Made by a program: the position numbers and the translations under genes | Source: Candidatus Falkowbacteria bacterium | GTDB lineage: Bacteria; Patescibacteriota; Patescibacteriia; UBA11705; JABHMO01 | Assembly: GCA_018674305.1 (NCBI GenBank) | Contig: JABHAL010000007.1 | Span: forward strand, 6,976 to 70,975 | Reading direction: 5' to 3' | DNA length: 64,000 bases | Shown: positions 10,101 to 53,521 of the stretch, in pieces | Position numbering within the stretch: the stretch's first letter is position 1 | How the letters are laid out: every line of letters begins with the position of its first letter | The notes under the pieces: model-generated | Databases searched by the model: none | What the model was told of the DNA's origin: nothing | Seen by the model: the letters and a program-made list of their open reading frames with translations, nothing else

Positions 10101-13100
10101 AATACAAGCCAGAACTTCCTTCAGTCAAATTACCCAAAGTTCCGTCAGCAATGATAGTCAATGAAGTTGTTGACAAATCACTTTTAGTAATACCAATCGG
10201 TATGTTCTGTGAAGTATATGCGGTATAAGTTGAAGGTGATGTTTCAGTTCCTTCTTCGTTTTTAGCTTTAACACTAACTTCAATCGCTGCATTTGCGGAC
10301 AACCCGCTCTGAACCCAACCATTAGCGGAAACCCAACCACTATTATCTGCCGGTGTAGCAGTACTAGCATAATATGAATTCTGTGCACCGCCACTACTCC
10401 AGCCCCAAGTGATAGAAGCCGTCGTATTAGCACTGTGAGTTAAGCTAGTTGGTGCATCTGCATCAGTATAGGCACTGGCAGGACTTGATCCAATACCAGC
10501 CCCTTGTGCATTGGTAGCACGAACATAAACTGTATATTGAGTATTAGCATCCAATGAACTTAACTGATATTGACTGGTAGCTGAACCAACAGTAGCAAGA
10601 CGAACATCATCCGAAGAACGATAAACATCATAATCAGTTGCCCCGGTTACATCATTCCAATCCCAAGTAATTGAATCTGCATCTGCTGCACTGTTTGTAA
10701 GTCCTGTTGGCTGAGCAGGACCAGTTGTATCCTGACTACTAGCTGCTCCGTCCGCCAAGTTATTATCACCATCCCCATCGTATGAAGATGTTCTAAACTG
10801 ATAACAAGTTCCCGCAGATAGTCCAGTGACCGAATATGGTGAGGTTGCCATCACTGAAGCATTGTTATACAAAACTGTATCATAAGTAGCATCACAACCG
10901 GTATCTTGTGCAATAGCCATACCACTTGGAGTAGGGCTTGGAACACTCCAAGTTAAAGTCATTACATAGTCATCCTTGTCAGTTGCCTCGGCCACCGTGA
11001 AACTGGTAACTGTACTAGCATGAGTATATTCAGTCACAGTTGAACCAAAAGCGGTTTCCGTATTATCTCCATTTCTAGCTTTGACTTTGAAACCATATCG
11101 CGTATTTGAGGTAAGACCTGTCATTGTAACTGTTCCCCAGGCAGACGCTGTTTGATAAGTTTCTGCCGCCTCCAGACTTCCATCACCCTTAAGATATTCT
11201 CCCGACACCGTTTCTTGGATCGCATATTCAGTTGTCGAAGGATTGCCATCGCCAGCAGTAACAGCCACCTGAATTTGAGTAGTTGTAAGGCCAGTAACGG
11301 TTGGCGATGACGGAGCATTAGCAAGAGTATATTTAAAAATTGAAGCCACACTTTGCTCATTACCATAATCATCAACTGCCCAAATATCAAAATAATATTT
11401 TTCATTCACTGATAATCCAGTTATTGTTGTTGTCGTGGTTGTCCGAGTTGCCAAAGCTACATCATCACCATTATCCCATTCAACAGCACCCCCACTTCGT
11501 CCTTCAGCATCAGCTTGGAATATGCTATACCAAATTTCATAATGATTAAAATTAGTTTCAGTTGCTATTGTCCAATCTACAGTCTGGGTAGTTGTAGTAG
11601 ATGAATCCCAGGCGAAAGCAAATAATCCAGTTGGATCAACATTGTCTAAGGTCATTGTCTGATTTGCCGCAGTTCCATCAGATGTATCATCATTAACAGT
11701 AACATTAATACAATTAGTGCCGTTAGCAGAAGCCAAATCAGTATCAGAATCCCAATCAAAACTTACCGAATTAGAGCCTGATGAAGTTATTACCCGAGTC
11801 CGAGTGGTTGCAGTCGCACCTATTTGATAAGCACCACCTGCAATATCCGGAGCGCCACCGCTATCATCAAAATCAGCCGTTGCAGCCGAACCTAATATTG
11901 TAGCCGCTGACCACGGACCATCACAAGCCCCATCACTATCAGATTCATATTGAATTTTTACTTTAGTGTCATCATCATCAGCATCATCCACTTCAATTGA
12001 AATCGTCACATCCCCGGAACCGTCCGTTTTCTGGGTAGCGCTATTCACACTAACAGTAGGATTTGAATTATACGAAATTGTTGCCGAAGAATAATTCAAA
12101 TCCGTCGCCGTAATATCTTGGTAGGAAATCCCCGTTAAAGAACCACTTCTAGCAATACTCACATATTCCCCAGTATTGTCAGTAGTATCAACCGTTTCAA
12201 ATGACCAACTACCATTATTATCACCAAAAACAAGGTCATTTGCTGTCTCGTCATAAAACGCAACTTGAGGAATTGTTCCGTCAAAAAGAAGACTTACCCA
12301 ATCCTGAACCGTATAAGTTCCTGTATGAATCTGCGTACAAGTCCAGCCGGCATTATCACAGCCAGAACCCGCTGACTGATAGGCATAATACAAATCATCT
12401 GAAAGAGGGTAAGCAATACCAACCTTATCGTTACTATCAATATCCATTCCAATATTTTCATGATATATAACTCCGGTAGCAATATCATCAACAGCATAAC
12501 AGGTCCAGTCTGAGTCATTGGCACCTGCGGCGTCACAACTAGCACCACCATCACGTTTTCCATAAATAAGCTTTTTGTCATTAATGTCATTACTAACAAT
12601 ATGTGGGACATTGTTACTATCAAACTTCAAAACATTATCATTACCAATATTATTAGTGGTGTAGACATCTTCACAAGACCAATCAGATGAGGCGCACCCA
12701 CTACCACCACCACCACCAACATACCAGGCATACCGCAGATCAGCAGTATTGCTATATTTATAGAGAATACCAGGATTATTAGAATCATTCAGATCCATAC
12801 TTGGAAAAAGCCCTACTGTATTAGTACTATCAATTGTTGTACAAGCCCAATTATTGTGAGTACAAGTTGATTCAGACCCTGAACCTGTATATATAGCATA
12901 CTCTAAGTCTCCACTATAAAAATTATAAAAAGCAATCCGCGGATTGTCCGAAGTATCAAACTTCAAGGAAACGCCCAACGCCTTAGCCGTATCCACCTGA
13001 ATAGGAGTACCCCAACTACTTCCATTGTAATAAACATAATACAAATCAAAACCTGACCCTCCCGTATTGCGAGCATAAGCAATACCCGGATTACCACTAC

Positions 13101-15047: not shown

Positions 15048-15323
15048 ATGAAAAAAGCTATTCATCCAAAATACAACACCAGTGCTAAAGTAAAATGTGC
15101 TTGTGGTAATGAATTCACAGTTGGTTCAACTGTTGACCTTCTTAAAATTGAGTTATGTCACCTTTGTCACCCTTTTTATACCGGTAAACAAAAATTAGTT
15201 GACTCAGCTCGAAGAGTTGAAAAATTCAAAGAAAAAGTGGCCAAGCAAGCAACTACTGCTGAAACCAGAAAAGGTAAGAAAGTTAAACGAGAGAATGAGG
15301 CCAAGAAAAAGGCAGACAAATAA
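15048..15323 (+). CDS. rpmE: 50S ribosomal protein L31 with a Lys-rich C-terminal tail
   Basis: 'MKKAIHPKY...[15 protein letters not shown]...[13 protein letters not shown]'. The start is the internal ATG at 15048. Confidence 0.85.
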
Positions 15324-15489
15324 CTTCCTTTCATAAACCGTCTTTTTGTTTTATAATGAAAACGAACATGGGCGGTTTTTAAATTACAAGAAGAGCAAGG
15401 AGATATAGAAGGTAAAAAAGATAACATAAATTAATAATCCTAAAGTCATCCCCCTCAAACTTCTTTAGCCCTTTTTCTCCCCTTCTAAT

Positions 15490-16542
15490 ATGCAAGAAAA
15501 AATAGATAAAATTAAACAAACATTTAAAGAACTCGAAGATCAACTTCAAGATCCTTCAGTTACTTGTGATCAGGGCAAATTAAAAAAAATCGGCAGTGAA
15601 CACGCCGAACTAAAAGATTTAATTGAGCTAATAAATAAATTCGAAAAAATTGATTCTGACCTAAAACAAGCTCGCGAAACGTCAGAAACTGAAACTGGAG
15701 AATTAAAAGAATTTGCTCTAGCTGAAATTGAAGAACTAGAACCACAGATTAACCAACTCGAAGATCAATTAAAAAAAGAATTAACCACCAAAGACCCTAA
15801 CGACAAAAAGGATGTAATCATAGAAATCCGGGCAGGCACAGGTGGAGACGAATCTGCTTTATTTACAGCTGAACTTTTTCGAATGTACTCTCGTTACGCT
15901 GAATCCCAAGGTTGGAAAGTAAATATTTTATCCTCAAATCAAATTGGCATCGGTGGCTTCAAAGAAGTTATTTTTGAAGTTAAAGGACAATCAGTTTTTG
16001 CTACTTTCAAATATGAACGTGGTACACACCGAGTACAACGTGTACCAGAAACTGAAAAGCAGGGCCGCGTACATACTTCAGCAGTTACTGTTGCCGTTTT
16101 ACCAGAAGTTGAAGAAGTTGATGTAAAAATCGAAGACAAGGATTTAAAAATTGACACTTATGCTTCCGGTGGTGCTGGTGGGCAAAGTGTAAATACAACT
16201 AACTCCGCAGTTCGAATCACCCACCTACCAACCAATACAGTTGTTTCTTGCCAAGACGAAAGATCACAAGCTCAGAACAGAATAAAAGCCATGCGAGTAC
16301 TACGTTCCAAAATTTACGAAGGCGAGATGCAAAAACAACACGACGCGCTTGGTGCTGACCGAAAAAAACAGATTGGATCTGGCGATCGCTCAGAAAAAAT
16401 ACGCACTTACAATTTTCCACAAGATCGAATTACGGATCACCGAATTAAAACCAATTGGAATAATATACCAACCGTCCTTGATGGTGACATGGGCAAAATC
16501 ATTGAAACATTGAAAGCTGAGGAATTTAAACTTCAGGAATAA
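15490..16542 (+). CDS. prfA: Peptide chain release factor 1
   Basis: GGQ motif '[23 protein letters not shown]' and PxT-type tripeptide '[15 protein letters not shown]'. Confidence 0.92.
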
Positions 16543-16555
16543 AAATAAATACATT

Positions 16556-16879
16556 ATGAAAAAAATCATTACAATCCTTATTGTAACTCTTTTCATTGCA
16601 ACCGGCTGTACTCTAGCAAACCAAAAAAAATCCACTGCTATTAAATGTAAAAAACTTTCCAGTTCAGAATGTTCACAAAACTCTACCTGCGATCAAATCA
16701 CAAATCTCCCGAACACAGCACCCGGGACACTTGGCATTCTCGGGTTTAGTCAATATTGTGTACCAAAAGGCGATAATGATTCCTGCGCAAAATTTGCAAC
16801 TCAAAAATCTTGCTTAAGCAATGAACAATGCGCTTATGCTAATATTAAAAGTAGTGGGGTGTGTTATATTAATGATTAG
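16556..16879 (+). CDS. Cys-rich secreted lipoprotein
   Basis: Signal peptide plus lipobox 'FIATGC', with 10 Cys in the mature part. Confidence 0.5.
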   Translation: MKKIITILIVTLFIATGCTLANQKKSTAIKCKKLSSSECSQNSTCDQITNLPNTAPGTLGILGFSQYCVPKGDNDSCAKFATQKSCLSNEQCAYANIKSSGVCYIND

Positions 16880-16886
16880 AATTTAA

Positions 16887-16913
16887 CAAAAAAGACTCCG
16901 CTTGGCAGAGTCT
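16887..16913 (-). terminator. Terminator hairpin (AGACTC...GAGTCT)
   Basis: Stem-loop with a T-run on the minus strand, downstream of 16926..17111. Confidence 0.45.
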
Positions 16914-16925
16914 AGTATGAATTGT

Positions 16926-17111
16926 TTAACTACTACTTTTACGTTTACCCAGTCGCCGTCCCATCTCCTTGCAATAATAGCTAGCGTGATCATCATAATC
17001 CCGAATACCGCAATCACGTAAACCATATTTTACGGCATCAAAGAACTTTTCTTTGTTTTTCAATCTTTCGGCAACCACATCTGCAACTCTTTCCCACTGC
17101 TCTTCTGTCAT
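16926..17111 (-). CDS. Small hypothetical protein
   Basis: 61-aa ORF followed by a terminator. Confidence 0.3.
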   Translation of the reverse strand: MTEEQWERVADVVAERLKNKEKFFDAVKYGLRDCGIRDYDDHASYYCKEMGRRLGKRKSSS

Positions 17112-17249
17112 TACTAATCCTCATAGCTGAGTTAAACAATGAACTACCTAAAGCACTTAAGACATTAACATTAAAATTGTTTTGTGTCAAAAATCGTAAG
17201 GCAACAAGAACGATCAAAAAACAACGGCAATCTCCGTTGTTTTTCTAAA

Positions 17250-18275
17250 TTATTTTTCCAGTTCTTTTTTTATGTAATGATCCTGCATCGGCTTAACATA
17301 CAATTCACGAGAAATATTCGTTAAAAAAACTTTTATTGCCGACGATATTGAACCCTTTTTCCTAATCTGCTCAGATGCATAAAACTTATGCTGTAAACCT
17401 TTTTCTTTTTTTGTATCCATTAAAGGATCATCAAAAACGTCAATATCAATAATTTGAAAATTATAATCTGTATCAGAATCATTTGACCGTTCAACAAAAA
17501 CATTTCCCGTTCTAGAAACATCTCCGCGAGAAGGCTTTGCTCCTTGCGTAGAATCCGTAATATCCAAGACGACCTCTGATGTTGCCTGCAGAAGATCAAT
17601 TTGTTCTAAAAACTTTTTCCAAGCTTTTTGCAAATCATCATATTCTTGCCTTCCTGCCATTAACCTACCAACCGATTCTCCCTTCGCAAAAGGCTGATCA
17701 ATCATTCTTTTGTAATTTCCCTCTGCGTCGCGATAAATAACAATATTATCAAACAAAACATTGATATTAATTTCACCCTCTTGTAGACTCATAAACTCTT
17801 TTTGCTGACGTTCAAATAGTTCCAACGCGCACATATTGCGCATTAACTTAACTATTGAAATTGGATCTTGATCATGACGCCCCTTCGAAACTTTCAAAAC
17901 TCGTTTTTCACCTGCCGAATTAACGAAAATTAAATTCTTATTTTCGGCACCTTCGGTTTGTTCTGTTTCTGGATCCTTTTCCAAAGCATTTAAATATACT
18001 CGAGCTTCCTCCGTTATACTAGGTATTCTAGATAGTTCAGACTCCTGCTCTAAAATTTTTCGCTGTGCAGGACTAGCTTTTTCCATTTTTGCTAATAACT
18101 CCTCCAACCTACATTTACGTTCTTCGATCTCTTCAATTGACAATTCCTTATCTAACCAAAAAACACTGTCAGACGTTTTTACTTCTTTGATAAAATTACT
18201 AAAATTCAATTCTGACTCTTTTGGACCATCTTTTCCTTCAGCTGGTAAAAATTGGTTTGCTTTAAATTTTTCCAT
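17250..18275 (-). CDS. Hypothetical protein (341 aa)
   Basis: Long ORF with no recognisable motif. It is inserted between prfA and prmC. Confidence 0.5.
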   Translation of the reverse strand: MEKFKANQFLPAEGKDGPKESELNFSNFIKEVKTSDSVFWLDKELSIEEIEERKCRLEELLAKMEKASPAQRKILEQESELSRIPSITEEARVYLNALEKDPETEQTEGAENKNLIFVNSAGEKRVLKVSKGRHDQDPISIVKLMRNMCALELFERQQKEFMSLQEGEININVLFDNIVIYRDAEGNYKRMIDQPFAKGESVGRLMAGRQEYDDLQKAWKKFLEQIDLLQATSEVVLDITDSTQGAKPSRGDVSRTGNVFVERSNDSDTDYNFQIIDIDVFDDPLMDTKKEKGLQHKFYASEQIRKKGSISSAIKVFLTNISRELYVKPMQDHYIKKELEK

Positions 18276-31668: not shown

Positions 31669-31804
31669 GATTCAATTATAACATGTTCCAAAATAGTCAA
31701 CAAAAAATACCTTCATCCAACCTGTATAATCTTTACATGGTTTATTTTAGAGACAAAATTTACAATTTTAAGGTTTCGACTTTTTGACCCAAAAAGTAGC
31801 AAAA

Positions 31805-31888
31805 AGGCTGGGGCTCCACTCCTTCGACAAGCTCAGGATGACAAGTGGAGTTTACCCCGAGCCAGTCGAGGGGCCCCAGACCCCGCCC
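31805..31888 (+). ncRNA. GC-rich structured element of unknown class
   Basis: Nested stems (GGGGCTCCACT / AGTGGAGTTTACCCC). An extended -10 TGTATAAT lies at 31723-31730. No CDS is present. Strand and extent are uncertain. Confidence 0.3.
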
Positions 31889-31965
31889 TGCTAATAATAT
31901 TCTAAGCGTCAAATCAATTAAGCAACAACCTAATTCTAATTGAAAAATGACTTGTTATTTATGAA

Positions 31966-31995
31966 TAAAAAAGCCCACTGAATTGTTCAGTGAGC
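31966..31995 (-). terminator. Terminator of the VWA gene
   Basis: GCTCACTGAA-CAA-TTCAGTGGGC plus T7 on the minus strand. Confidence 0.55.
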
Positions 31996-32010
31996 TTTGT
32001 AACAGTCCCA

Positions 32011-33663
32011 TTAACGAAGGTTGCGCACAACCACTTGCAGGGCTGTACCAAACTCTTCCAGACACTCTTCCATTGAAGTGTAAATCAATTCAATAGGATA
32101 AATATCTGGAACGTGATGCACTCCAACCATGAAATGCACAACAATGATCCCCCTAGCCAGAAGTTGTTGAGTCATTTTTCTAACCAGAGCAATATCATCT
32201 GGCCCATCATCGCAAAGAACGAGAAGTACCTTACGACGCTTGGTCGACCTAGCCAACTTTGAACCAGCGCTCTTCAACATGTGAGTATCTGAATTAGCAC
32301 CTTCACCTTCTAGGTTAACAAACCCAGAGTCTCGACTGGCTGGGCCAAAATCGTACACTGCCTCCGAACTAAAACCCCAAAGATGTCCTTCACAAGCTGG
32401 ACTTAGTCGTAAAATCGCTTCGGTAAACAGCGTAGCAATTCGTTTGGCTTTTTCCAGTTTGCTTTCACTCATTGAACCGCTGGTATCAACCGCTAAATGA
32501 ATTTCAGCGTCAATGTTACGTTCAACAATTGTTTCCGTAAAAACATCTGGAAATCCAAGCGCAATACCAGCTGCCTCATCCATATCCAGATCACCCTCAT
32601 ACTGACTATACAGCTCCGAATATTCTGGGTTTTCCAAAAATCGAAACTTTCGCATCAAGGGTTTAAGCAATTCTCTATTTTGCTGTAAATACTTTTGATA
32701 CAGCGCATGATTAGCTGAATCTGCTTTTACTTTTTTAACTTTAACATTGTTCTTTAACCCGACTGAAATTGGGCCAGGGTGAACCATGTTCAGAGATTTC
32801 AACTTTTGAGCCAGTTGTTTCAGCCCAGTGTTACGCACCGTAGCTACATGTAATTTAGCAATCTGCCTCAGCGCCTTTAACAATGCCTTGGGCAACTCCC
32901 CTTTTCCTCTTGCAAAATTGCTAAAGAACTGAGAGAAGAGCCAAAATTCAATCTCTGGCCGTTCATCTTCGGAATTCCGTATTTGCCATTCGCCAAGAAT
33001 GTTTTTGACTTTTAGAGCTCGCCAATAAAACTCTTCTGGCGTTGCCGTAACCAGGATTTTTCTACGCAACTGCTTCATTGCTCTACGAGTTTCTTTAAAC
33101 TTCGGGCTTTTGTGCCACTTAGCAGCAAAGAAAAAATCCTCATAAACATCTTCAGCTGGCCAGTTACGTAAGAACTGGTACATTTGAGCCTTATTCATGC
33201 CACGTTTAGTCAAAAAACCCTCGTACTTTTCATAGCGTGAATTTACACACAAGTACAACAATCGACCACGCAAGGCCTTAGCAAAACCAGGCGAATCATC
33301 AGCTAACAAAATATCATCCTTGCGATCCAACATGATTTGCAAGATATGATACAATGTCCGGTCTTCCTTGTCCATTGCCCTTTTCAATAACTCAGGACCA
33401 AATGGTGAAAACAGGATATGACCAGCTTCATGATAAACGCTACCATAGCCAACCTGCTCAAACCCTTTCACAAAATAGTATGGGTTCATGAAAATATCAG
33501 CCTTGCAGTCGGTAGCCGCAGTTTCAACACGGGGATCCCAAATAAACCTGAATGGCCGATTAATAATCATCGCCACATCATTGCATAGATAAGGAAACTC
33601 TCGTTCCAACAAGGCCATATCTTGTTCTGATAATGGCTTGTCAAATAAAAGGTCTGGATTCAT
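32011..33663 (-). CDS. DUF2201-like protein: N-terminal putative HExxH metallopeptidase domain plus C-terminal VWA (MIDAS) domain
   Basis: 'YHEAGHILFSPFG' (HExxH), 'HLAVDTSGSM' MIDAS DxSxS motif, 'VLLVLCDDGPDD'. Confidence 0.7.
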   Translation of the reverse strand: MNPDLLFDKPLSEQDMALLEREFPYLCNDVAMIINRPFRFIWDPRVETAATDCKADIFMNPYYFVKGFEQVGYGSVYHEAGHILFSPFGPELLKRAMDKEDRTLYHILQIMLDRKDDILLADDSPGFAKALRGRLLYLCVNSRYEKYEGFLTKRGMNKAQMYQFLRNWPAEDVYEDFFFAAKWHKSPKFKETRRAMKQLRRKILVTATPEEFYWRALKVKNILGEWQIRNSEDERPEIEFWLFSQFFSNFARGKGELPKALLKALRQIAKLHVATVRNTGLKQLAQKLKSLNMVHPGPISVGLKNNVKVKKVKADSANHALYQKYLQQNRELLKPLMRKFRFLENPEYSELYSQYEGDLDMDEAAGIALGFPDVFTETIVERNIDAEIHLAVDTSGSMSESKLEKAKRIATLFTEAILRLSPACEGHLWGFSSEAVYDFGPASRDSGFVNLEGEGANSDTHMLKSAGSKLARSTKRRKVLLVLCDDGPDDIALVRKMTQQLLARGIIVVHFMVGVHHVPDIYPIELIYTSMEECLEEFGTALQVVVRNLR

Positions 33664-33931
33664 TTTATTACCTCATTTTTTTAATGATCAATATTTTATT
33701 TAAAAAATGAAAGATTCAAGATTTAAGGTCAAAGACCCAGGAAAGGTTCAGGGCTCAAGACACGAAGAAAAAAAAGGCTTTATTATTTAGTCTAAATCCG
33801 CCTAGTCTCTTACTCCTTGAACCTTACTACTTCCCTTTCCCTTTGCTCTTGAATCCTTAACCCTTTATCTTTTATACTATTCTATTTCTAATTTCAAGTT
33901 TCTCTTGGAACCTTTGAAACCAGAAATAGAA

Positions 33932-33979
33932 GCGGGAAATGAATTTCACTTCCCGCTATGACTGATGTTTGCTAATGGT
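33932..33979. repeat. Repeat unit 0 of the structured-repeat family
   Basis: Hairpin AGCGGGAAATGAATTTCACTTCCCGCT plus downstream GTTTGCTAATGG motif. This is the same architecture as units 1-9. Confidence 0.7.
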
Positions 33980-34195
33980 GAGCTTGGGTTTGTCAGCCAC
34001 TGTCAGGCCGTAGCCTGCAGTGAAGGAAACAACAATAGCGCGTCAGCGCGACGTTGACGAGCAAAGGCCGACCTGACTGAGGCTGACTAACTGCACTCAA
34101 GCTAAACCTAACGGAACGCTTCTTACTGACATTGATACAATATCAGCTTAACGAAGATCTGATTTAGAAAAATCAGCGGTTCAAACAAACTCAGT

Positions 34196-35347
34196 CTATA
34201 TTGAAAGATCAGCAATACTTTTTCTCATTGCAGAAAAAGCTTTAGCTACTTCACTGTTGGCATCTCTGGGTTTTCGGTCCCTTGTGCCATTGACACCAAT
34301 TTCACCTTCATACCACCCCAGGAATCCCTTGATAATAGCGGACTCCAAATCAACACCATGCTTGAGCAAGTAGCCTACTGTTCGACAACCACGATAACTG
34401 GGTGAAAACGCCAAATTGCCAGCACGCTCTGCAGTTCGCAAATTACGTGCAACTTCAACAATTTTCAGAGCCTGTGATTCCAAAATGCCGACTTCAGAAG
34501 CCAGCTTTTGAGACTCATAATCCTTAGGCATCTCCCTGACCCGCATCGGTGCAAAGCGATCCTTAAGTGCCGCATCAACACCATGTGTCCCCAGATATTC
34601 ATCACCCATGTTCATAGTGCCCATAAAGTGAATATTCCCTGGCAACACAATTGTGTTACTACCTTCCGCGGTAGGAAAGGTGACCTGACGAGTGTCATCG
34701 AACAAGCCATGCATACTCTCATTAGTCTTGGCATGCACTCGGTTAATTTCATCCAGCACTACCAAAAACTGCGTTGCCAAACCTTCTCTCTCCGCAATCA
34801 TGGCGCGTTCAATGTAATCGTAAAAGCCAGAACGGATAAAAAGACTTGAGCCATTGGCTGCCGCATTGGAGCCAAACAGATCTGTGGTCTTTTTCATGGT
34901 GTAAACATCAACCTTATACGGTTGCTGCCAGCCCAAAGCCTGAGCAATGGCAAAAGGTAAAGTTGTCTTGCCAGTTCCTTTCGGTCCAATCAGCAAAACA
35001 TCAATACCTTCGTTAAGCCAAACCAACAAAGTTTTCAGGTCGAGATTCTCGATCCAAAAATTGCTCAATTCAGCAATACTTTCCCATTTCTTCAACTTTT
35101 GCACTTTGGCAACCAATTGCACAATAGCGATTTTTTGACGCCCTTTACCAGGCCGCCTTTCAACCAGTTCAACCTGCCAGACATCGCCATTTTCAATCTT
35201 GATTCCACTTGGCGGATGGTTCACTTGAACCAGGGTACTTCGCATATCTTCATCTACGAATTTCCAACCCAAGACACCACTGGCATCAAATTTTGCTCTC
35301 ACTTTCAGGATATCAGCCATTTTTACCTCTCTTTTTGTAATGTTCAA
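34196..35347 (-). CDS. MoxR-like AAA+ ATPase (AAA_5 family)
   Basis: Walker A 'LLIGPKGTGKTTL' and Walker B 'FLVVLDEINRV'. Confidence 0.8.
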   Translation of the reverse strand: MNITKREVKMADILKVRAKFDASGVLGWKFVDEDMRSTLVQVNHPPSGIKIENGDVWQVELVERRPGKGRQKIAIVQLVAKVQKLKKWESIAELSNFWIENLDLKTLLVWLNEGIDVLLIGPKGTGKTTLPFAIAQALGWQQPYKVDVYTMKKTTDLFGSNAAANGSSLFIRSGFYDYIERAMIAEREGLATQFLVVLDEINRVHAKTNESMHGLFDDTRQVTFPTAEGSNTIVLPGNIHFMGTMNMGDEYLGTHGVDAALKDRFAPMRVREMPKDYESQKLASEVGILESQALKIVEVARNLRTAERAGNLAFSPSYRGCRTVGYLLKHGVDLESAIIKGFLGWYEGEIGVNGTRDRKPRDANSEVAKAFSAMRKSIADLSI

Positions 35348-35397
35348 ATTTCCAAATTCTTATCACCTATTTAATCAAATAAGTTTCAAGAATTTGA

Positions 35398-37634
35398 GCT
35401 GGAAGTGTTACACTTCCAGCTAAGTTAGTTTGCTAAGGACCTGTAGGACCGTAACAGTTTCGCTACGAAATGAGATTTGCTCATTGTCATTCGTAACGAC
35501 TTTTCGTTACGAATGCGTAGCGACAACAGTTACGGTGCCGTAGCGTGAACCGCATGAGTCCCGAAGGGCGGGGAACGCTACGAGGACTAGCAATAATATA
35601 CTTAAACGCAAACCTTGTATTGATACAATACAAGTAAAGCTTTTGCCAAAGCTTCAAACAAACTAACTTCTAATCTCTAAATCCAATCCTTTAGCTTCAG
35701 AGATTAAAGGGGAAATGGTTCACTTCCCCTGAATCAGTTTGCTATGGCTGTTGTAGGCTTGTGAAAAACTTGCTGTCAAGAATGCAGCAAGAATTGCAGC
35801 AGGGTTGCAGCAAATTTGTCACAAGGCCGTCACGGGAACTTCCCACCGGAGTGACCGTGAGGAACCCTGGCAACACCAAATTAAACCTTAACCTTACATT
35901 GCTACAATGCAAGCAAAGGACAAAGTCCTCCAACAAACTGATTTTCAACCTTTAAATCCAAATCCTTAGATTCAAAGGTTAAAGGGGAAATGATTCACTT
36001 CCCCAAAGCTGTTTTGTTTGCATAAGGTTGCTTCTGTTTGTGACGCAAGCCGTAGGCGGGGTCACAAACCGAACCCCAGTTGCGATGCGCGACTGGGTGA
36101 GAGCACTGGCTAAACCTTAAGGGTTGTTGTCTCACTGACTTTGATAACAAAATCAACTATAACGACAACTCACTACAAGTAGTGACAACAACAAACCAAA
36201 CTACAGCTCACCTGAACAATTAAATATCAAGTTTAACTACTCAGGTAAGCCGGGGAAATGATTCACTTCCCCGGAGCTGTTTTGTTTGCATATGGTTGCC
36301 GGAGTCTGTGACACCTAAAGCGAAGTGTAGTGTCACAGATCAGGCTAGCCCCACGCCCTCAGGGGAATACGTGGGGCTGGACTGGGTACTGGCGCAACCT
36401 TATGATCGTTGTCTCACTAACTTTGCAAGTCAAAGATAGTTAAAACGACAACTCACTATAAATAGTGACAATTAACCAAACTACAGCTCACCTGAATAAT
36501 TAAAATCAATTTAACTACTCAGGTAAGCCGGGGAAATGATTCACTTCCCCGGAGCTGTTTTGTTTGCATATGGTTGCCGGAGTCTGTGACATCTAAAACG
36601 CAGTGTAGTGTCACAGATCAGTTTAGCCTCACGCCCTTTAGGGGAAACGTGGGGCTAAACTGGGGAACTGGCGCAACCTTACGATCGTTGTCTTACTAAC
36701 TTTGCTAATCAAAGCTAGTTAAAACGACAACTCACTATAAATAGTGACGATTAACCAAACTACAGCTCACTTGAATACTTTAATATAAAACACTCAAGTG
36801 AACTGGGGAATGTTGCATTCCCCATGTGCTAGTTTGCTATGGTTAATGATCCAGTCTCAGTAAAGATTTCACAGAAAACTTTCTGAGACTGGCCAGTGCA
36901 GGGGTTCCATTAACAGGCGAAGCCCGGGAGCCCAAGCTGGTAGTGGTTGGCAACTACCTATAAAAATGCCTATCTTATTTTGCTACAAAATAAGTTTTAG
37001 CAGACTTTTGCTAAAGCCCAACCAACAAACTAACTTCAACTAAAAAGCTCAAACAGATTGAACACTTTAGTTGAAGGAGGAATGCTGCATTCCTCCTAAT
37101 AAAAGTACAAATTTGCTATGGCACGAAAAGCAACGCGACATTTTGACCTTGCTTCTAAGCGAAGCGCAACAGAGAAAGGTCAAAATATAGTTCGCCATCA
37201 ACCAGGGATCGTTATCCAAACCAATCTTGATTCAAGACTGGCAGTCTACCATGATATTTACACGATTGGGTAGAATCTATAACAATCAAACAAATCTGCC
37301 AACCACTAATTTCAAATTAATTAAAAGCATTGGTTGACTGGAGAATGCTGCATTCTCCAGTAGGGGCGCTCCCCAAAAAGCTAGTTTCATTGGTTGTGAT
37401 GTTATCAGGATTTCGAAGAAATCCGGATAACTTGTGACGTTGAGGGTCGGTGGTGTTAACCAGAAAACCCGAAGCGTCAAAAAACACTGGCTGGAGCTAT
37501 CCAACCCTACAAACTTGTTTTGAATTCAAAACAAGTACGACCCGTGAAAAAGGTCAAACAAACTAGCTTTCAACTTGTAAACTTTAACTCAAAGCTACAA
37601 TTCACAAGTTGAAGGGAAACTCTAGGAGTTTCCC
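35398..37634. repeat. Tandem array of nine ~260-280-bp non-coding structured repeat units
   Basis: Unit-initial GC hairpins at 35398-35420, 35709-35729, 35984-36004, 36250-36274, 36528-36552, 36805-36823, 37076-37096, 37338-37360 and 37614-37634. Each is followed after 7-17 nt by a G/ATTTGC(T)A(W)GG motif (absent from truncated unit 9). Each unit ends with a long-range inverted repeat. Hairpin stems differ between units by paired compensatory substitutions. Units 4 and 5 are about 90% identical. Confidence 0.85.
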
Positions 37635-37654
37635 TTGTAATTATACTAGAACCA

Positions 37655-39208
37655 CTACTTCAATGCCATATGCGCCAAACTGTGAGCACTGGTATTCAAT
37701 TCACGTGGCACATGGTGAAAACGCACTGTACCAATTTCCTTAACAAGTGCCTTCACCTGTGCAACCAGGGTTCGCAAATGAGGCTTACTCACTGCAAACT
37801 TGCCGTTAAGCTGATTCACAACCAGCATACTGTCGGTAAAGCAGTCCAACTCAGCAATGCCAAGTTCTTTAGCTGCCGTCAAACCAACAATTATTGCTTG
37901 ATATTCAGCCTGATTACTTGTCGCCTTCCCAATCAGCTGGGAAATAGTTGATACTTCAGTTCGATCCTTAATCAAAACTGCACCGATACCAGCCTGGTAA
38001 GACTTCCTGGCCGCACCGTCAACAAACAATAGATTGTCACCAAGCAACTGAGAAGAAACATCACCTTGGCCGTCAATCACTACCATGCTCAACTGCTTTG
38101 CCAAATCCTGCAAACCACTCGGCAACAAGGCGTTGTCCAAATATTGCAATGACTTCGCAACCTTGCCAGCATGCAAACGATCTTCAATCTTGCCAACCAG
38201 AACGCGCAGTTTGGATGGTAGCTTCTCCGGATACAACTGACGAACCGCACCCAATGTGCCATTCACCTTACCCAGAATGTGCTCATCCCAAACTTCGATT
38301 TTGAGCCAGTTGTTAAAAGCAGCTCGTAACTGATTCACTTTCCGCGGCGCCATGGTCAAACGACCATCAGGACAAATCACGATCCCAGTTACAATCGGAA
38401 CTTCACCGGTTTCAGGACTGTAGTACTTAGTTTTGTCAGGCCGAGTGTGAGGAATAAAGCCATGCTCCTTGATTAGCGCAAGGATCTTGGCCCTCATTTC
38501 CTCTGGGATCTCTTTGTCAGAAGATACCGTAATGTCATCAAACCAAGAAGTCATGTTAAAACCCTGCAAAGGGCTTGAACTTTCGTGCAGATAACTGAAT
38601 ATAGCTGTGTCCATTTTGTAACACACAATACCCAGAATACGCGGTGAAGTTGGTGGGCCTTGCGGAAGTCGATCATGCAAACAAAGCAAATCAACTACTG
38701 CCTCCAGCATGTTCTTCACGTCATCTTCCAACCAAGTAACATCACCAAACTGTCGGAGCATGAATCGAAATGGTTTTTGCAAACACTTACGAATTCGACT
38801 GCGAAGAACTGTAGGATAAGCATTAATAATATCAACGCCAAACGCAACCTTGTTACCCATGTGCGCAGCCGCATGCTCCACGATCCCAGTTCCACCCTGG
38901 CAACCATAACGAGAAAAATGGATCGGAATCTGATCCAAAAACTGCGCCTTGATTGATCGTTGTACAGTCTTCAACTCAGCACAGGGCGCTGCAAAATAGC
39001 GATAACCCTTGCCACGACCCTTGAACTTACGCCACTCTCGGTATGCCTTTCCCTGACGAATCTTGTCCAAAGCAAAGTTCCAGCTAGCCTTATCCAGCTT
39101 AAAAAGCAGACGCAAATACTGTGCCAAACGCTCGGACAACACCAGGATGGTGCCAAAGTCCGTGTACTCGTCCAGAGGATTGACCTTTTTCTTCTTTTCC
39201 GTTGGCAT
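37655..39208 (-). CDS. Reverse transcriptase fused to a C-terminal RNase H (archaeal type 1 / RVT_3-like) domain
   Basis: RT motifs 'RYFAAPCAELKTVQRSI', 'GVDIINAYPTV', 'LPQGPPTSPRILGIVCY' and 'WFDDITVSS' (YxDD-type). RNase H motifs 'VDGAA..GIGAVL', 'SNQAEYQAII', 'CFTDSMLVV' and 'HHVPRELNTSAHSLA'. RBS AGGAGG. TTGACA -35 on the minus strand at 39282-39277. Confidence 0.85.
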   Translation of the reverse strand: MPTEKKKKVNPLDEYTDFGTILVLSERLAQYLRLLFKLDKASWNFALDKIRQGKAYREWRKFKGRGKGYRYFAAPCAELKTVQRSIKAQFLDQIPIHFSRYGCQGGTGIVEHAAAHMGNKVAFGVDIINAYPTVLRSRIRKCLQKPFRFMLRQFGDVTWLEDDVKNMLEAVVDLLCLHDRLPQGPPTSPRILGIVCYKMDTAIFSYLHESSSPLQGFNMTSWFDDITVSSDKEIPEEMRAKILALIKEHGFIPHTRPDKTKYYSPETGEVPIVTGIVICPDGRLTMAPRKVNQLRAAFNNWLKIEVWDEHILGKVNGTLGAVRQLYPEKLPSKLRVLVGKIEDRLHAGKVAKSLQYLDNALLPSGLQDLAKQLSMVVIDGQGDVSSQLLGDNLLFVDGAARKSYQAGIGAVLIKDRTEVSTISQLIGKATSNQAEYQAIIVGLTAAKELGIAELDCFTDSMLVVNQLNGKFAVSKPHLRTLVAQVKALVKEIGTVRFHHVPRELNTSAHSLAHMALK

Positions 39209-39252
39209 TTTCAGCCTCCTATTTTAATATAATGAACATACTTTAACTGATA

Positions 39253-39282
39253 ACTTTAGCAAATTTTCTAACTTTTGTCAAG
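39253..39282 (-). promoter_or_regulatory. Putative sigma-70 promoter of the RT gene (TTGACA-17-TAAAGT)
   Basis: Read from the minus strand. The -10 element is weak. Confidence 0.3.
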
Positions 39283-39311
39283 ATTTAGGTCAATTTAGTC
39301 TAAAACTGCAC

Positions 39312-39340
39312 AAAAAAACAGTAAATTAATAATTTACTGT
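39312..39340 (-). terminator. Terminator hairpin ACAGTAAATTA..TAATTTACTGT plus T7
   Basis: Immediately follows the stop of ORF 39341..39628. Confidence 0.55.
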
Positions 39341-39628
39341 TTATCTCATAGGCGAATTGTTCTTCCAATTTTCCACTTCCAGCTCATCGGCTATTTTTCG
39401 TTTAAGTTTAGCTGTCAATTTAATAATTTTTTTACATTTCTGACAAGTAATTACCGCGCAACTTAAATGTGCCTTAGTTACAACTTGAGAATGCTCACAA
39501 GGAAGCTGAATCCTTTTTGTCATTACCATAACGTTCCCCTCCGTAACGTTCATCTCGTTAATTAATCTATCTATACCATATCTATTAATAAATAACAACC
39601 CACTGACTTGACATAATTTTATTTTCAT
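39341..39628 (-). CDS. Small Cys-containing hypothetical protein
   Basis: 95-aa ORF (possibly starting at the internal Met 'MNVTEG'). 'CEH..C...TCQKC' pattern. Confidence 0.3.
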   Translation of the reverse strand: MKIKLCQVSGLLFINRYGIDRLINEMNVTEGNVMVMTKRIQLPCEHSQVVTKAHLSCAVITCQKCKKIIKLTAKLKRKIADELEVENWKNNSPMR

Positions 39629-52527: not shown

Positions 52528-53521
52528 ATATAAAGTCGTTCACTAGATTATTCGCTTCATTATAATCCTTAATCCAATGGATTGTTTTATCTCTTTTGAA
52601 CCAGGTTAACTGCCGTTTGGCGTAACGGCGCGTATCTCGTTTAACTAAACGAACGGCCTCTACGCCGTTAATTTCATTATTTAAAAATTGACAAACCTGC
52701 CGATAACCAATACCGCTCATAGAAGAAGAACTACAGTCATAACCTTTTTTGATCAAAGACTTTACTTCTTCAACTAAACCTTCCTTCATCATTTGATCTA
52801 CTCGTTTGTCAATTTTTGCATACAGTTCTTCTCTTGGTAAAGCTATCCCAAGTTGTAAAAATTCAAATTCACCTTCCCCCACTTGAGGTTCCAATGGCTT
52901 TTTGGTTTTTAAAATAATTTCTGCCGCGCGCACAACTCTACGTGAATTGGAGGTGTCAATTTTATTTTCAATTCCTGGATCGATTTCCCTTATCTCACTT
53001 AGCAAAGCCTTAATCCCCTTTTTCTCAATCTGCTTTTCTAACCTGGCTCGAAGTTTCTCATCAAAACCGTCTAATAATTGATAATCATTTACCAATGCAG
53101 AAATATATAGTCCGGTTCCACCGACAATAATTGGCATCCGACTAGGATTGTCTTTTATAATTTGTTTAACTTGTTTTAACCAGTCGTCCAGACTAAACTC
53201 CTGATTCGGTTCAATAATATCCACCATGTATTCTTGAATTTGGTCCGAATGTTCCAAGTTTTTTTTCTTTAATCCTTGCTCCTTAATCTTTCCTGGCTCT
53301 TGGCTCTTGAATCCTGAATCCTCACCAACAAGATAATATTTTCCCTCTTTCCAAACACCTGGATCCTTGTTGGTGCCAATATCCATCTGTTTATAAACCT
53401 GGCGCGAATCTGCAGAAATCAAAAAACCGTTAAACTGTTTTGCGAGTTTGAGAGCGATACCTGATTTACCACTGGCGGTTGGACCAAGGACGATGATTAC
53501 TTTTTGTTTTTTCTTGTTCAT
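52526..53521 (-). CDS. miaA: tRNA dimethylallyltransferase
   Basis: 'VIIVLGPTASGKSGIALKLA' P-loop and 'ADSRQVYKQMDIGTNK'. The start is assigned to the ATG at 53521. Confidence 0.85.
   Translation of the reverse strand: MNKKKQKVIIVLGPTASGKSGIALKLAKQFNGFLISADSRQVYKQMDIGTNKDPGVWKEGKYYLVGEDSGFKSQEPGKIKEQGLKKKNLEHSDQIQEYMVDIIEPNQEFSLDDWLKQVKQIIKDNPSRMPIIVGGTGLYISALVNDYQLLDGFDEKLRARLEKQIEKKGIKALLSEIREIDPGIENKIDTSNSRRVVRAAEIILKTKKPLEPQVGEGEFEFLQLGIALPREELYAKIDKRVDQMMKEGLVEEVKSLIKKGYDCSSSSMSGIGYRQVCQFLNNEINGVEAVRLVKRDTRRYAKRQLTWFKRDKTIHWIKDYNEANNLVNDFI

Follow-up and report, generated by a model that had tools for sequence, protein, structure and literature searches.

INTRODUCTION

In retrons, a reverse transcriptase (RT) acts on a structured noncoding RNA, of which the msr part functions as RNA, while the msd part is copied to DNA that must form a hairpin, in which any G·U pair of the template turns into a C·A mismatch. 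Here we describe an operon found in a 64,000-nucleotide (nt) stretch of a Candidatus Falkowbacteria genome (contig JABHAL010000007.1, positions 6,976–70,975 of the forward strand; this whole stretch is called the window below), in which the gene of an RT-RNase H fusion is followed by an array of structured RNA units, the gene of a MoxR-class AAA+ ATPase, one further unit and the gene of a protein with a von Willebrand factor A (VWA) domain and an HExxH motif. The best-supported reading of this locus is a retron variant composed of a retron-clade RT, arrays of cassettes with a constant handle and a variable template, and an accessory pair made up of the MoxR ATPase and a protein carrying a metal ion-dependent adhesion site (MIDAS) and HExxH. 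Since the RT is assigned to the retron clade and the units are msr-msd-like, we regard the locus as a new retron variant rather than a categorically new system.

Retrons such as Ec86, Ec67 and Ec78 belong to the same RT clade and have the same NAxxH and VTG motifs. As here, their noncoding RNA is adjacent to the RT gene on the same strand, shows a1/a2-like pairing of its ends, and consists of short 5′ hairpins (msr-like) and one or two long 3′ hairpins (msd-like); the combination of RT, RNA and accessory protein is likewise common to both, and so, presumably, is the part of RNase H in maturation. Several features set the present locus and its relatives apart: they contain arrays of one to at least eight different units with a common constant domain, RNase H is fused to or encoded beside the RT in some members, and the accessory genes form, unlike in any of the 13 retron types, a pair of a MoxR AAA+ ATPase and a MIDAS/VWA-HExxH protein, in Patescibacteria hosts. 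The accessory proteins given for retron types I–XIII (PMC7736814) include none of the AAA, vWA or RNase H1 type. Furthermore, retrons have their multicopy single-stranded DNA (msDNA), whereas the units described here are known from sequence alone.

The accessory pair has relatives of its own. NorQ-NorD, CobS-CobT, CbbQ-CbbO, RavA-ViaA and midasin/Rea1 also combine an AAA_5 ATPase bearing Walker motifs with a VWA protein that has a complete MIDAS. Unlike those pairs, which serve metalloenzymes or ribosome assembly, the pair described here is tied to an RT and RNAs, its VWA protein has a family-specific HExxH domain and its ATPase an extra N-terminal domain. Systems of the unknown group/defence-associated RT (UG/DRT) class, such as DRT2 and DRT9, use an adjacent structured noncoding RNA as template; they differ from the present locus in the RT clade, in having a single noncoding RNA and in the MoxR-VWA pair found here. 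The Ro60-Y RNA complex likewise joins a VWA/MIDAS protein to RNAs, in some cases multicopy ones, in which a long stem closes off internal modules that vary. The present locus differs from it in lacking a TROVE domain, in having an RT and in the conserved core of its RNA. In the vWA-MoxR ternary conflict systems named after their VMAP protein, which occur in multicellular bacteria, RTs of the diversity-generating retroelement (DGR) clade mutagenize effectors through template and variable repeats (TR/VR) (PMC7159879). These systems share with our locus a MoxR-vWA couple and an RT in a presumed conflict system, but they have the third, VMAP protein and many effector domains, while our locus has a retron-clade RT, no TR/VR and no VMAP gene. 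The RT diversity of the candidate phyla radiation (CPR) was reported to be dominated by DGRs (PMC8632793).

An earlier interpretation of the window made from its letters only (hereafter the sequence-only reading) had judged the combination undescribed, and this view was borne out: in the searchable literature, with subscription-only papers outside its scope, no description was found of a retron with MoxR/vWA, of a retron in CPR or Parcubacteria or of a 'type XIV' retron, and a retron census preprint held nothing on the RT-array-MoxR-VWA combination. In the literature covered, neither the architecture of the array nor the accessory module has a precedent among retron-type RTs.

RESULTS

The reverse transcriptase belongs to the retron clade

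All parts of the block lie on one strand, as the sequence-only reading had it. This is the minus strand, and the order of the parts is promoter, RT-RNase H gene, eight units, MoxR gene, one unit, VWA gene and terminator. The 517-amino-acid (aa) product of the first gene matched Pfam RVT_1 at residues 66–263 and RVT_3/RNase_H at 393–515, the latter match agreeing with the RNase H domain presumed earlier. The RT domain spans approximately residues 47–330 and contains the motifs HAAAH (a variant of NAxxH), FDD and IVTG, while the RNase H domain covers about 393–516. In PADLOC, the best 25 of 35 matches of the RT were all retron-type RT models (RT_VI, 4e-32), with no DRT model among these 25, and the best NCBIfam model was retron_St85_RT (NF038233, 1e-35). 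The RT family profile, compared with all PDB chains, found retron RTs only (Ec86 at 1.3e-26, Ec67, Kva2, Ec78 and Ec83), and no DGR or group II RT was among its matches at E ≤ 0.001. In the alignment of homologues the family consensus reads TNAxxHAG with an invariant H116, followed by VTG, where G275 is invariant and T274 at least 90% conserved. NAxxH in region X and the VTG triplet in region Y are the hallmarks of retron RTs (PMC7736814). Judged by its profile matches and these hallmark motifs, the RT is a retron-clade enzyme. It falls, therefore, into a known class, and its partners lie beside it and are noncanonical, rather than canonical partners encoded elsewhere.

The RNase H domain of the window protein keeps the catalytic D, E and D, while the fourth carboxylate is replaced by His. 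Most RT homologues are approximately 400–440 aa long and lack RNase H; C-terminal RNase H fusions were found in 5 among the 80 homologues listed. In one related locus (L026; related loci are designated by L and a number) RNase H is encoded by a separate 141-aa open reading frame (ORF) directly upstream of the RT gene, and in L013 and L040 an RNase H-like stretch lies just 5′ of it. The repeated recruitment of RNase H beside the RT, together with the strict co-inheritance of the RT described below, argues for an RNA:DNA hybrid being made.

Nine closed RNA units are arranged in an array

The noncoding DNA amounts to 2.3 kb between the RT and MoxR genes and to 0.5 kb between MoxR and VWA. It is organized with a period of approximately 270 nt into closed RNA domains of 193–248 nt, read on the minus strand. 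Nine such closed units were found, eight between RT and MoxR and one between MoxR and VWA, along with ten modules of two hairpins (A and B), one forming the leader of the array and one following every unit (9 + 1). The period agrees with that given in the sequence-only reading, whereas its count of ten units (9 + 1) has to be lowered to nine (8 + 1); the presence of ten hairpin modules around nine units is probably why ten were counted. The 5′ arms of the eight RT-MoxR units start at 37570, 37299, 37034, 36768, 36489, 36209, 35944 and 35669, and that of the ninth at 34196. The elements of the array are the following (all on the minus strand):

37571–37654: array leader, with a possible −10 box TATAAT (37645–37640), hairpin A0 (37636–37612) and hairpin B0 (37611–37571)
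37377–37570: unit 1; closing stem AAAGCUAGUUU/GAAACUAGCUUU, P2 apex UUGAAUUCAA, variable 3′ hairpins
37107–37299: unit 2; P2 apex UUGAAUCAA
36828–37034: unit 3; P2 apex UUGUAGCAA
36552–36768: unit 4; first of three recent duplicates, best covariance-model match of the window (41.9 bits)
36274–36489: unit 5; 92% identity to unit 4
36006–36209: unit 6; related to units 4 and 5
35732–35944: unit 7; P2 apex UUGUAGCAA, GUCAC/GUGAC motifs in the 3′ domain
35422–35669: unit 8; P2 apex UUGUAUCAA, long 3′ hairpin with GUAAC/GUUAC motifs
33960–34196: unit 9; P2 apex UUGUAUCAA, first base of the 5′ arm shared with the end of the MoxR stop codon
within 35350–37376: inter-unit spacers, each with hairpin A (of GGGGAAGUG-NNN-CAUUUCCCC type) and then hairpin B
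37376–37300, 37106–37035, 36827–36769 and 36551–36490: spacers 1–4
36273–36210, 36005–35945, 35731–35670 and 35421–35350: spacers 5–8
33880–33959: hairpins A and B after unit 9

Read from 5′ to 3′, a window unit opens with a 5′ arm whose last bases are GUUUG. The junction UUUGA or UUGG leads to short hairpins, among them one with the apex UUG-NNN-CAA, and these are followed by one or two long hairpins. After a second junction (UAG or AUG) comes the 3′ arm, which opens with CAAAC and pairs with the 5′ arm. Only units 4–6 are close in sequence (87–92%), while the remaining ones are alike in architecture and not in sequence. Hairpin A is well supported: 94% of its cells are paired, eight of its ten pairs are changed on both sides, and one position is G·U in five of the ten copies. 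A strict hairpin A motif gave 10 matches per 64 kb versus 0.7 expected, and every one was within the array. The hairpins of the window have no U-runs, while U-rich tracts frequently come after hairpin A in the related loci.

Some side observations concern the array. The P2 hairpin inside the units and hairpin A between them have a common UG-NNN-CA triloop apex, in the window and in all loci, which hints at one protein recognizing both. Neighbouring units that are identical or nearly so, namely those at 11290, 11656 and 12022 of L017 and units 4–6 of the window, indicate recent tandem duplication, suggesting that the arrays grow and shrink quickly between related genomes (L017 versus L039, L010 versus L027). 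A sigma-70-like site with a perfect TATAAT box (37640–37669, minus strand) falls within the closing codons of the RT gene, just 5′ of hairpin A0, so the array may additionally be transcribed separately.

The units belong to a structured RNA family

In other loci the consensus of a unit is sharper than in the window: a variable 5′ arm is followed by CUUGACCG, inner hairpins, GGNCGUUUGA, P2 with its UG-NNN-CA apex and GUGAGNCC, and then by CGGUCC, a variable region of 60–210 nt, YAUC and the complementary 3′ arm. In an alignment of 25 of the 5′ domains, the helices (GACCG/CGGUC, the inner stem and P2) were 90.5% paired, whereas shuffling gave 74% and sliding no more than 44%, and they contained 84 double-change cells versus 22.6 expected, a number reached by none of 500 shuffles. 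RNAalifold recovered the same helices unaided from seven whole units. Since neither the 3′ domains, which were not alignable, nor hairpin B could be brought into register by MAFFT, the pair counts exclude both. The closing stem was examined in 56 distinct units, where each of its inner nine pairs is formed in approximately 90% of cases or more, and by many pair types. The stem as a whole is 84% paired versus 57%, with 183 double-change cells versus 66. As the 3′ arms were selected for complementarity, two independent controls matter here: the best stem averaged 9.5 bp within units and 6.8 bp once arms had been swapped between them, and the NATC junction, which was outside the selection criteria, was present in 62 of approximately 125 candidates. 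G·U pairs outnumber A·C mismatches both in the 5′ domain helices (60 vs. 13) and in the closing stem (15 vs. 5), which indicates an RNA read from the gene strand. The G of the CUUG junction, 4 nt past the 5′ arm, is at least 90% conserved, and in the structure model it is paired in helix P1a.

A covariance model, R1, was built from the 25 aligned 5′ domains and replaced a noisy detection of units by regular expression and greedy search. Over 0.5 Mb it gave 92 matches, all on the gene strand; in 21 complete non-redundant loci all matches with E < 0.01 lay inside the two gaps of the operon, and those of the window were confined to the array. R1 found nothing in outgroup RT loci, in flanks of ±8–10 kb or in the rest of the window, and it had 0 matches in 629 kb of viral DNA picked for the core motif, where 70 exact pattern matches were due to chance. 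Consequently, the repeats are tied to the RT operon and are not a dispersed element, in accordance with the link to the RT drawn from the window at first. Arrays range from one unit up to 7 + 1 (L010), 6 + 2 (L029) and 8 + 1 (window), either gap can hold units, and the unit number varies from 1 to 8 even among close relatives. Because R1 misses the RNA of the distant clade (L121) and scores the window units weakly, unit counts based on it are lower bounds. The window units are a divergent branch of the family. In Rfam 15 nothing in the block matched at the gathering threshold, and at E ≤ 5 the window array and L035 gave chance-level matches alone.

The two halves of a unit differ as predicted for msr and msd

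A unit thus has three components, a covarying closing stem, a conserved 5′ domain with the structure of an RNA-only element and a hypervariable palindromic 3′ domain. The two domains were compared in 51 non-redundant units. G·U accounts for 13.6% of the predicted pairs in the 5′ domain and for 4.3% in the 3′ domain (Fisher p 9e-26). The mean folding energy of the 5′ domain is −37.7 kcal/mol for the sense strand versus −28.5 kcal/mol for its complement (p 2e-9), while that of the 3′ domain is −52.3 versus −55.9 kcal/mol. The nine window units followed the same trend, with 10.7% G·U in the 5′ and 4.9% in the 3′ domains and 3′ energies of −48.4 (sense) and −50.4 (complement). Low-G·U 3′ domains that are stable as the complement are what a reverse-transcribed template predicts.

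The 3′ domains are enriched in GTNAC (65 vs. 22 expected), which is spaced by 11 nt in 16 of 46 intervals, and TGACA and UUCG-type loops are enriched as well. It was also observed that GTNAC (often as CGTNACG) and TGACA/TGTCA recur approximately every 11 nt in the long hairpins, which places them on one helical face, in L003, L006, L010, L014, L017 and units 4–8 of the window, and that the choice between these motifs differs from unit to unit. An origin of the variable domains similar to that of spacers was considered but is not supported, as they are self-complementary hairpins and gave no phage matches (databases of CPR phages being poor).

The accessory genes encode a midasin-like ATPase and a MIDAS/HExxH protein

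The MoxR protein matched Pfam AAA_5 (PF07728, 3e-13), and its Walker A (GPKGTGKT) and Walker B (DE) motifs are invariant in the family. Searched against the PDB, the profile of the ATPase family matched the AAA modules of midasin at 4e-40, followed by McrB, NorQ, CobS and CbbQ at approximately 1e-12 to 1e-9. The AAA+ core is preceded by a conserved N-terminal domain (residues 1–100, with G45, D46, W48 and V50) that has no Pfam match and could be a nucleic-acid- or partner-binding part.

The VWA protein contains an invariant HExxH (H78, E79 and H82) and the MIDAS motif DxSxS (D393, S395 and S397). Its VWA domain is of the NorD, CobT and midasin type, with NorD and the MIDAS domain of midasin (MDN1/Rea1) as the nearest relatives. 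The protein is modelled well (predicted local distance difference test score, pLDDT, 85.8), and approximately 300 N-terminal aa form a helical, weakly zincin-like domain. No Pfam match was obtained for this N-terminal half in 32 of 32 family members, and PF09967/PF13203 matched neither the window protein nor the 32 members at E ≤ 0.05, so the DUF2201 label proposed for the protein in the sequence-only reading is rejected, whereas its name VWA/HExxH proved right. Neither TROVE nor HEAT matched the N-terminal domain, and Ro60 aligned via the VWA domain alone. In PADLOC, the MoxR protein had nothing above noise (best E ~0.005) and the VWA protein no match. The VWA family is small, as a search of 1.84 billion proteins gave only 43 representatives at E ≤ 1e-30.

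RT, RNA units, MoxR and VWA are inherited together

Homologues of the RT were found in Patescibacteria records (Falkow-, Uhr-, Andersen- and Yanofskybacteria, some labelled Saccharibacteria). The order RT, gap, AAA_5, gap, VWA was present in all loci where the RT is at least 38% identical and enough downstream DNA is available, and the units accompany it; this is the outcome of the synteny search suggested by the sequence-only reading. This order is conserved in more than 20 independent loci of several candidate phyla, down to 36–41% protein identity, and the three protein families co-occur on the same contigs. In a distant member (VWA at E 1e-86), the RT gene is followed by a highly structured gap of 432 nt (z-score −4.7), AAA_5 and then VWA. 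We concluded that the RT, the RNA units, MoxR and VWA are inherited together.

The flanking genes vary by genome and are housekeeping ones in all loci, which provides no defence-island context, contrary to the initial proposal. No relative of the RT was found in IMG/VR viral contigs, nor did blastn of the array against 50,697 phage records give any match. In L001 a 736-aa SMC_N/AAA_23 protein is encoded directly 3′ of the VWA gene (15309–17519), which is not found in the other loci.

DISCUSSION

A proposed mechanism

On balance, the evidence leans toward the RT copying the 3′ domains of the units. The operon transcript, or a separate array transcript started at the leader, would be cut or insulated at hairpins A and B, yielding single units. 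The RT would bind the constant 5′ domain (P1a, P1b and P2 with its UG-NNN-CA apex), with the nearly invariant G in CUUG, next to the closing stem, as the possible priming site and the conserved 3′ AUC junction as the point where copying may begin. The variable 3′ domain would thus be converted to a single-stranded DNA hairpin, while the template could be stripped by an RNase H that is fused to the RT, encoded adjacent to it or supplied by the host. The expected DNA would be complementary to the 3′ domain, and its 5′ end would lie across from the AUC/UAG junction; the predicted product of unit 8 would start with 5′-CTAAGGACCTGTAGGACCGTAACAG. In this way a cell might hold a panel of differing msDNA-like hairpins, many with GTNAC or TGACA on one helical face. 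By analogy with retrons, the complexes of RT, RNA and DNA may be guarded or sensed, and a disturbed complex might be remodelled by the midasin-like ATPase and its MIDAS partner, by which the HExxH effector would be released or activated. Abortive infection directed against phages, proposed as the outcome by the same analogy, is the least certain step. A defensive role, toward which the retron analogy, the patchy distribution and the atypical composition of the locus point, is put forward with less confidence than the copying of the 3′ domains. More tentatively, and as a possibility rather than a probability, the locus may be a 'multiplex retron', in which one RT with an expandable cassette array makes a repertoire of single-stranded DNA hairpins, bearing short motifs at helical periodicity, as baits or sensors. 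Disturbance of this repertoire would be registered by an AAA+/MIDAS machine of midasin type whose effector resembles a metalloprotease, the whole being a modular immune or surveillance system specific to CPR.

If the retron-variant reading is true, a natural system of one RT and many (eight or more) cassettes alters the picture of one RT and one RNA per retron, the MoxR-VWA pair becomes the fourteenth accessory type in the retron classification, and the locus represents the first retron-like system typical of Patescibacteria and the first with many template RNAs. The remodelling machinery of MoxR/midasin-MIDAS type would thereby be linked to a nucleic-acid complex in bacteria. Constant RT handles with swappable templates are the aim of multiplexed retron editing, which gives the arrays practical interest, and a 'multiplex retron' would be a natural platform for making many DNAs from one RT.

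Several points weigh against a retron variant whose RT copies the units. Reverse transcription of the units is deduced entirely from sequence, and double-stranded DNA palindromes or very stable RNA hairpins could also account for the scarcity of G·U in the 3′ domains. The units stand downstream of the RT and between the accessory genes, while the RNA of classical retrons lies upstream, and we know of no arrays of retron RNAs. The RT reached 123.4 bits with NF038233, under the curated cut-off of 235, and in most homologues the locus has no RNase H. The candidate priming G is paired in P1a. The window units fit R1 weakly (41.9, 29.6 and 26.1 bits for units 4–6, the others as fragments) and have UUUGA or UUGG at the junction instead of CUUGACCG. 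Finally, the HExxH domain has no convincing fold match, and there are no defence genes nearby.

Alternative explanations

The strongest of the alternatives, in our estimation still unlikely, is an RNA-only ribonucleoprotein (RNP), in which Y-RNA-like or vault-RNA-like units are bound by the VWA protein and remodelled by the midasin-like ATPase, while the RT copies some other RNA or at least not the units; its role would be RNA quality control or RNP assembly in reduced genomes. Y RNAs, too, have a closing stem with conserved junctions, and the relatives of the two accessory proteins are remodellers of RNPs or other complexes, as seen from the midasin match at 4e-40 and the MDN1/Rea1-type MIDAS. 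The housekeeping neighbours and the lack of RNase H in most loci would also suit such a particle. A purely RNA scaffold, however, needs neither the avoidance of G·U nor the folding of the complement that the 3′ domains exhibit, and it does not account for an RT that is strictly co-inherited with the units and beside which RNase H was repeatedly recruited. The protein side is no closer to Ro60, as the TROVE domain is missing and the match to Ro60 runs through the VWA domain alone.

It is rather improbable that the units, instead of being substrates of the RT, regulate in cis or insulate, setting the RT:MoxR:VWA ratio as attenuators or as signals for processing or stabilization. Their position exactly in the two intergenic gaps and the U-rich tracts that often follow hairpin A in other loci are compatible with such a function, but up to at least eight different units of 200–350 nt, each with a conserved four-helix 5′ domain and a hypervariable 3′ domain, far exceed what regulation needs, their number changes from 1 to 8 among close relatives, and the hairpins of the window are devoid of U-runs.

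It is very improbable that the RT copies the units for retrotransposition, as part of a selfish or mobile element, or to mutagenize a target gene in the manner of a DGR, a diversifying role having been suggested in the sequence-only reading. RT and RNase H make the classic pairing of retroelements, the GC content and the GC content at third codon positions (GC3) differ from those of the flanks, and the array contains tandem duplicates. Nonetheless, no integrase, endonuclease or target-site repeat was detected, the units were never found outside the operon, and the gene order is kept across deep divergence. As for diversification, a TR/VR pair is absent, nothing in the window looks like a unit altered by A-to-N changes, and the RT profile matches retron RTs only, not those of DGRs or group II introns, placing the RT outside the DGR clade. 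A group II intron was rejected separately, as no Rfam group II model matched at the gathering threshold or at E ≤ 5 and the RT profile misses group II RTs.

Although MoxR-VWA pairs occur in many unrelated contexts (PMC7159879), a chance neighbourhood of a retron-like RT, an unrelated MoxR-VWA pair and repetitive DNA is effectively refuted by the same order in more than 20 independent loci and in a distant clade and by the presence of the three families on the same contigs.

Boundaries, composition and other features of the window locus

The genes and the remaining signals of the block are as follows:

39253–39281, minus strand: sigma-70-like promoter TTGACA-17 nt-TAAAGT with TG; consensus match only (10 of 12 positions), the best of the region
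~39222–39217, minus strand: AGGAGG ribosome-binding site, 5′ of the RT gene
37655–39208, minus strand: RT-RNase H ORF, 517 aa
34196–35347, minus strand: ORF of the MoxR-class AAA+ ATPase (AAA_5), probably translated from the ATG at 35320
33700–33873, minus strand: imperfect hairpin of ~170 nt with a purine-rich and a pyrimidine-rich arm, between unit 9 and the VWA start (z-score −4.1)
32011–33663, minus strand: VWA/HExxH ORF, 550 aa
31970–31998, minus strand: intrinsic terminator closing the operon
39312–39340: terminator hairpin of the upstream gene, not of the operon

In the NCBI annotation (Candidatus Falkowbacteria), the RT is called 'reverse transcriptase-like protein' and the VWA protein 'hypothetical'. 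Regarding the limits of the block, the sequence-only reading was right that the RT has its own promoter and Shine–Dalgarno sequence. The two hairpins that it took for terminators on either side also exist (31998–31970 and 39340–39312), the latter, however, ends the upstream gene, and the GC-rich structured element regarded as the end of the block lies after the terminator and thus outside the operon. The higher G+C content ascribed to the block was confirmed (0.431 vs. 0.367 for the remaining window), yet this shift, though real, is not unique within the window, where 1.5-kb segments outside the block have a standard deviation of 0.026 and a maximum of 0.430. The GC3 of the RT, MoxR and VWA genes is 0.48, 0.43 and 0.39, respectively, versus 0.22–0.36 in the flanking genes. 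GC, GC3 and the patchy distribution together suggest horizontal acquisition of the block.

The imperfect hairpin at 33700–33873 weakly resembles a pyrimidine-rich stretch at 53259–53322 (74–78% over 55–63 nt, in both orientations). The GC-rich element beyond the operon terminator (~60 nt from it) is approximately 110 nt long and falls in 31800–31900 (minus strand); it folds with −58.8 kcal/mol (z-score −3.1), holds GUCAUCCUGAGC...GAAGGAG, matches no Rfam family and may be an independent small RNA. A scan for tRNA and tmRNA found a single tRNA-Asp, remote from the block. Directly upstream of the RT promoter, a 95-aa ORF with CxxC-like motifs and its own terminator (39341–39628, minus strand) sits between the operon and secE-nusG-rplK-rplA.

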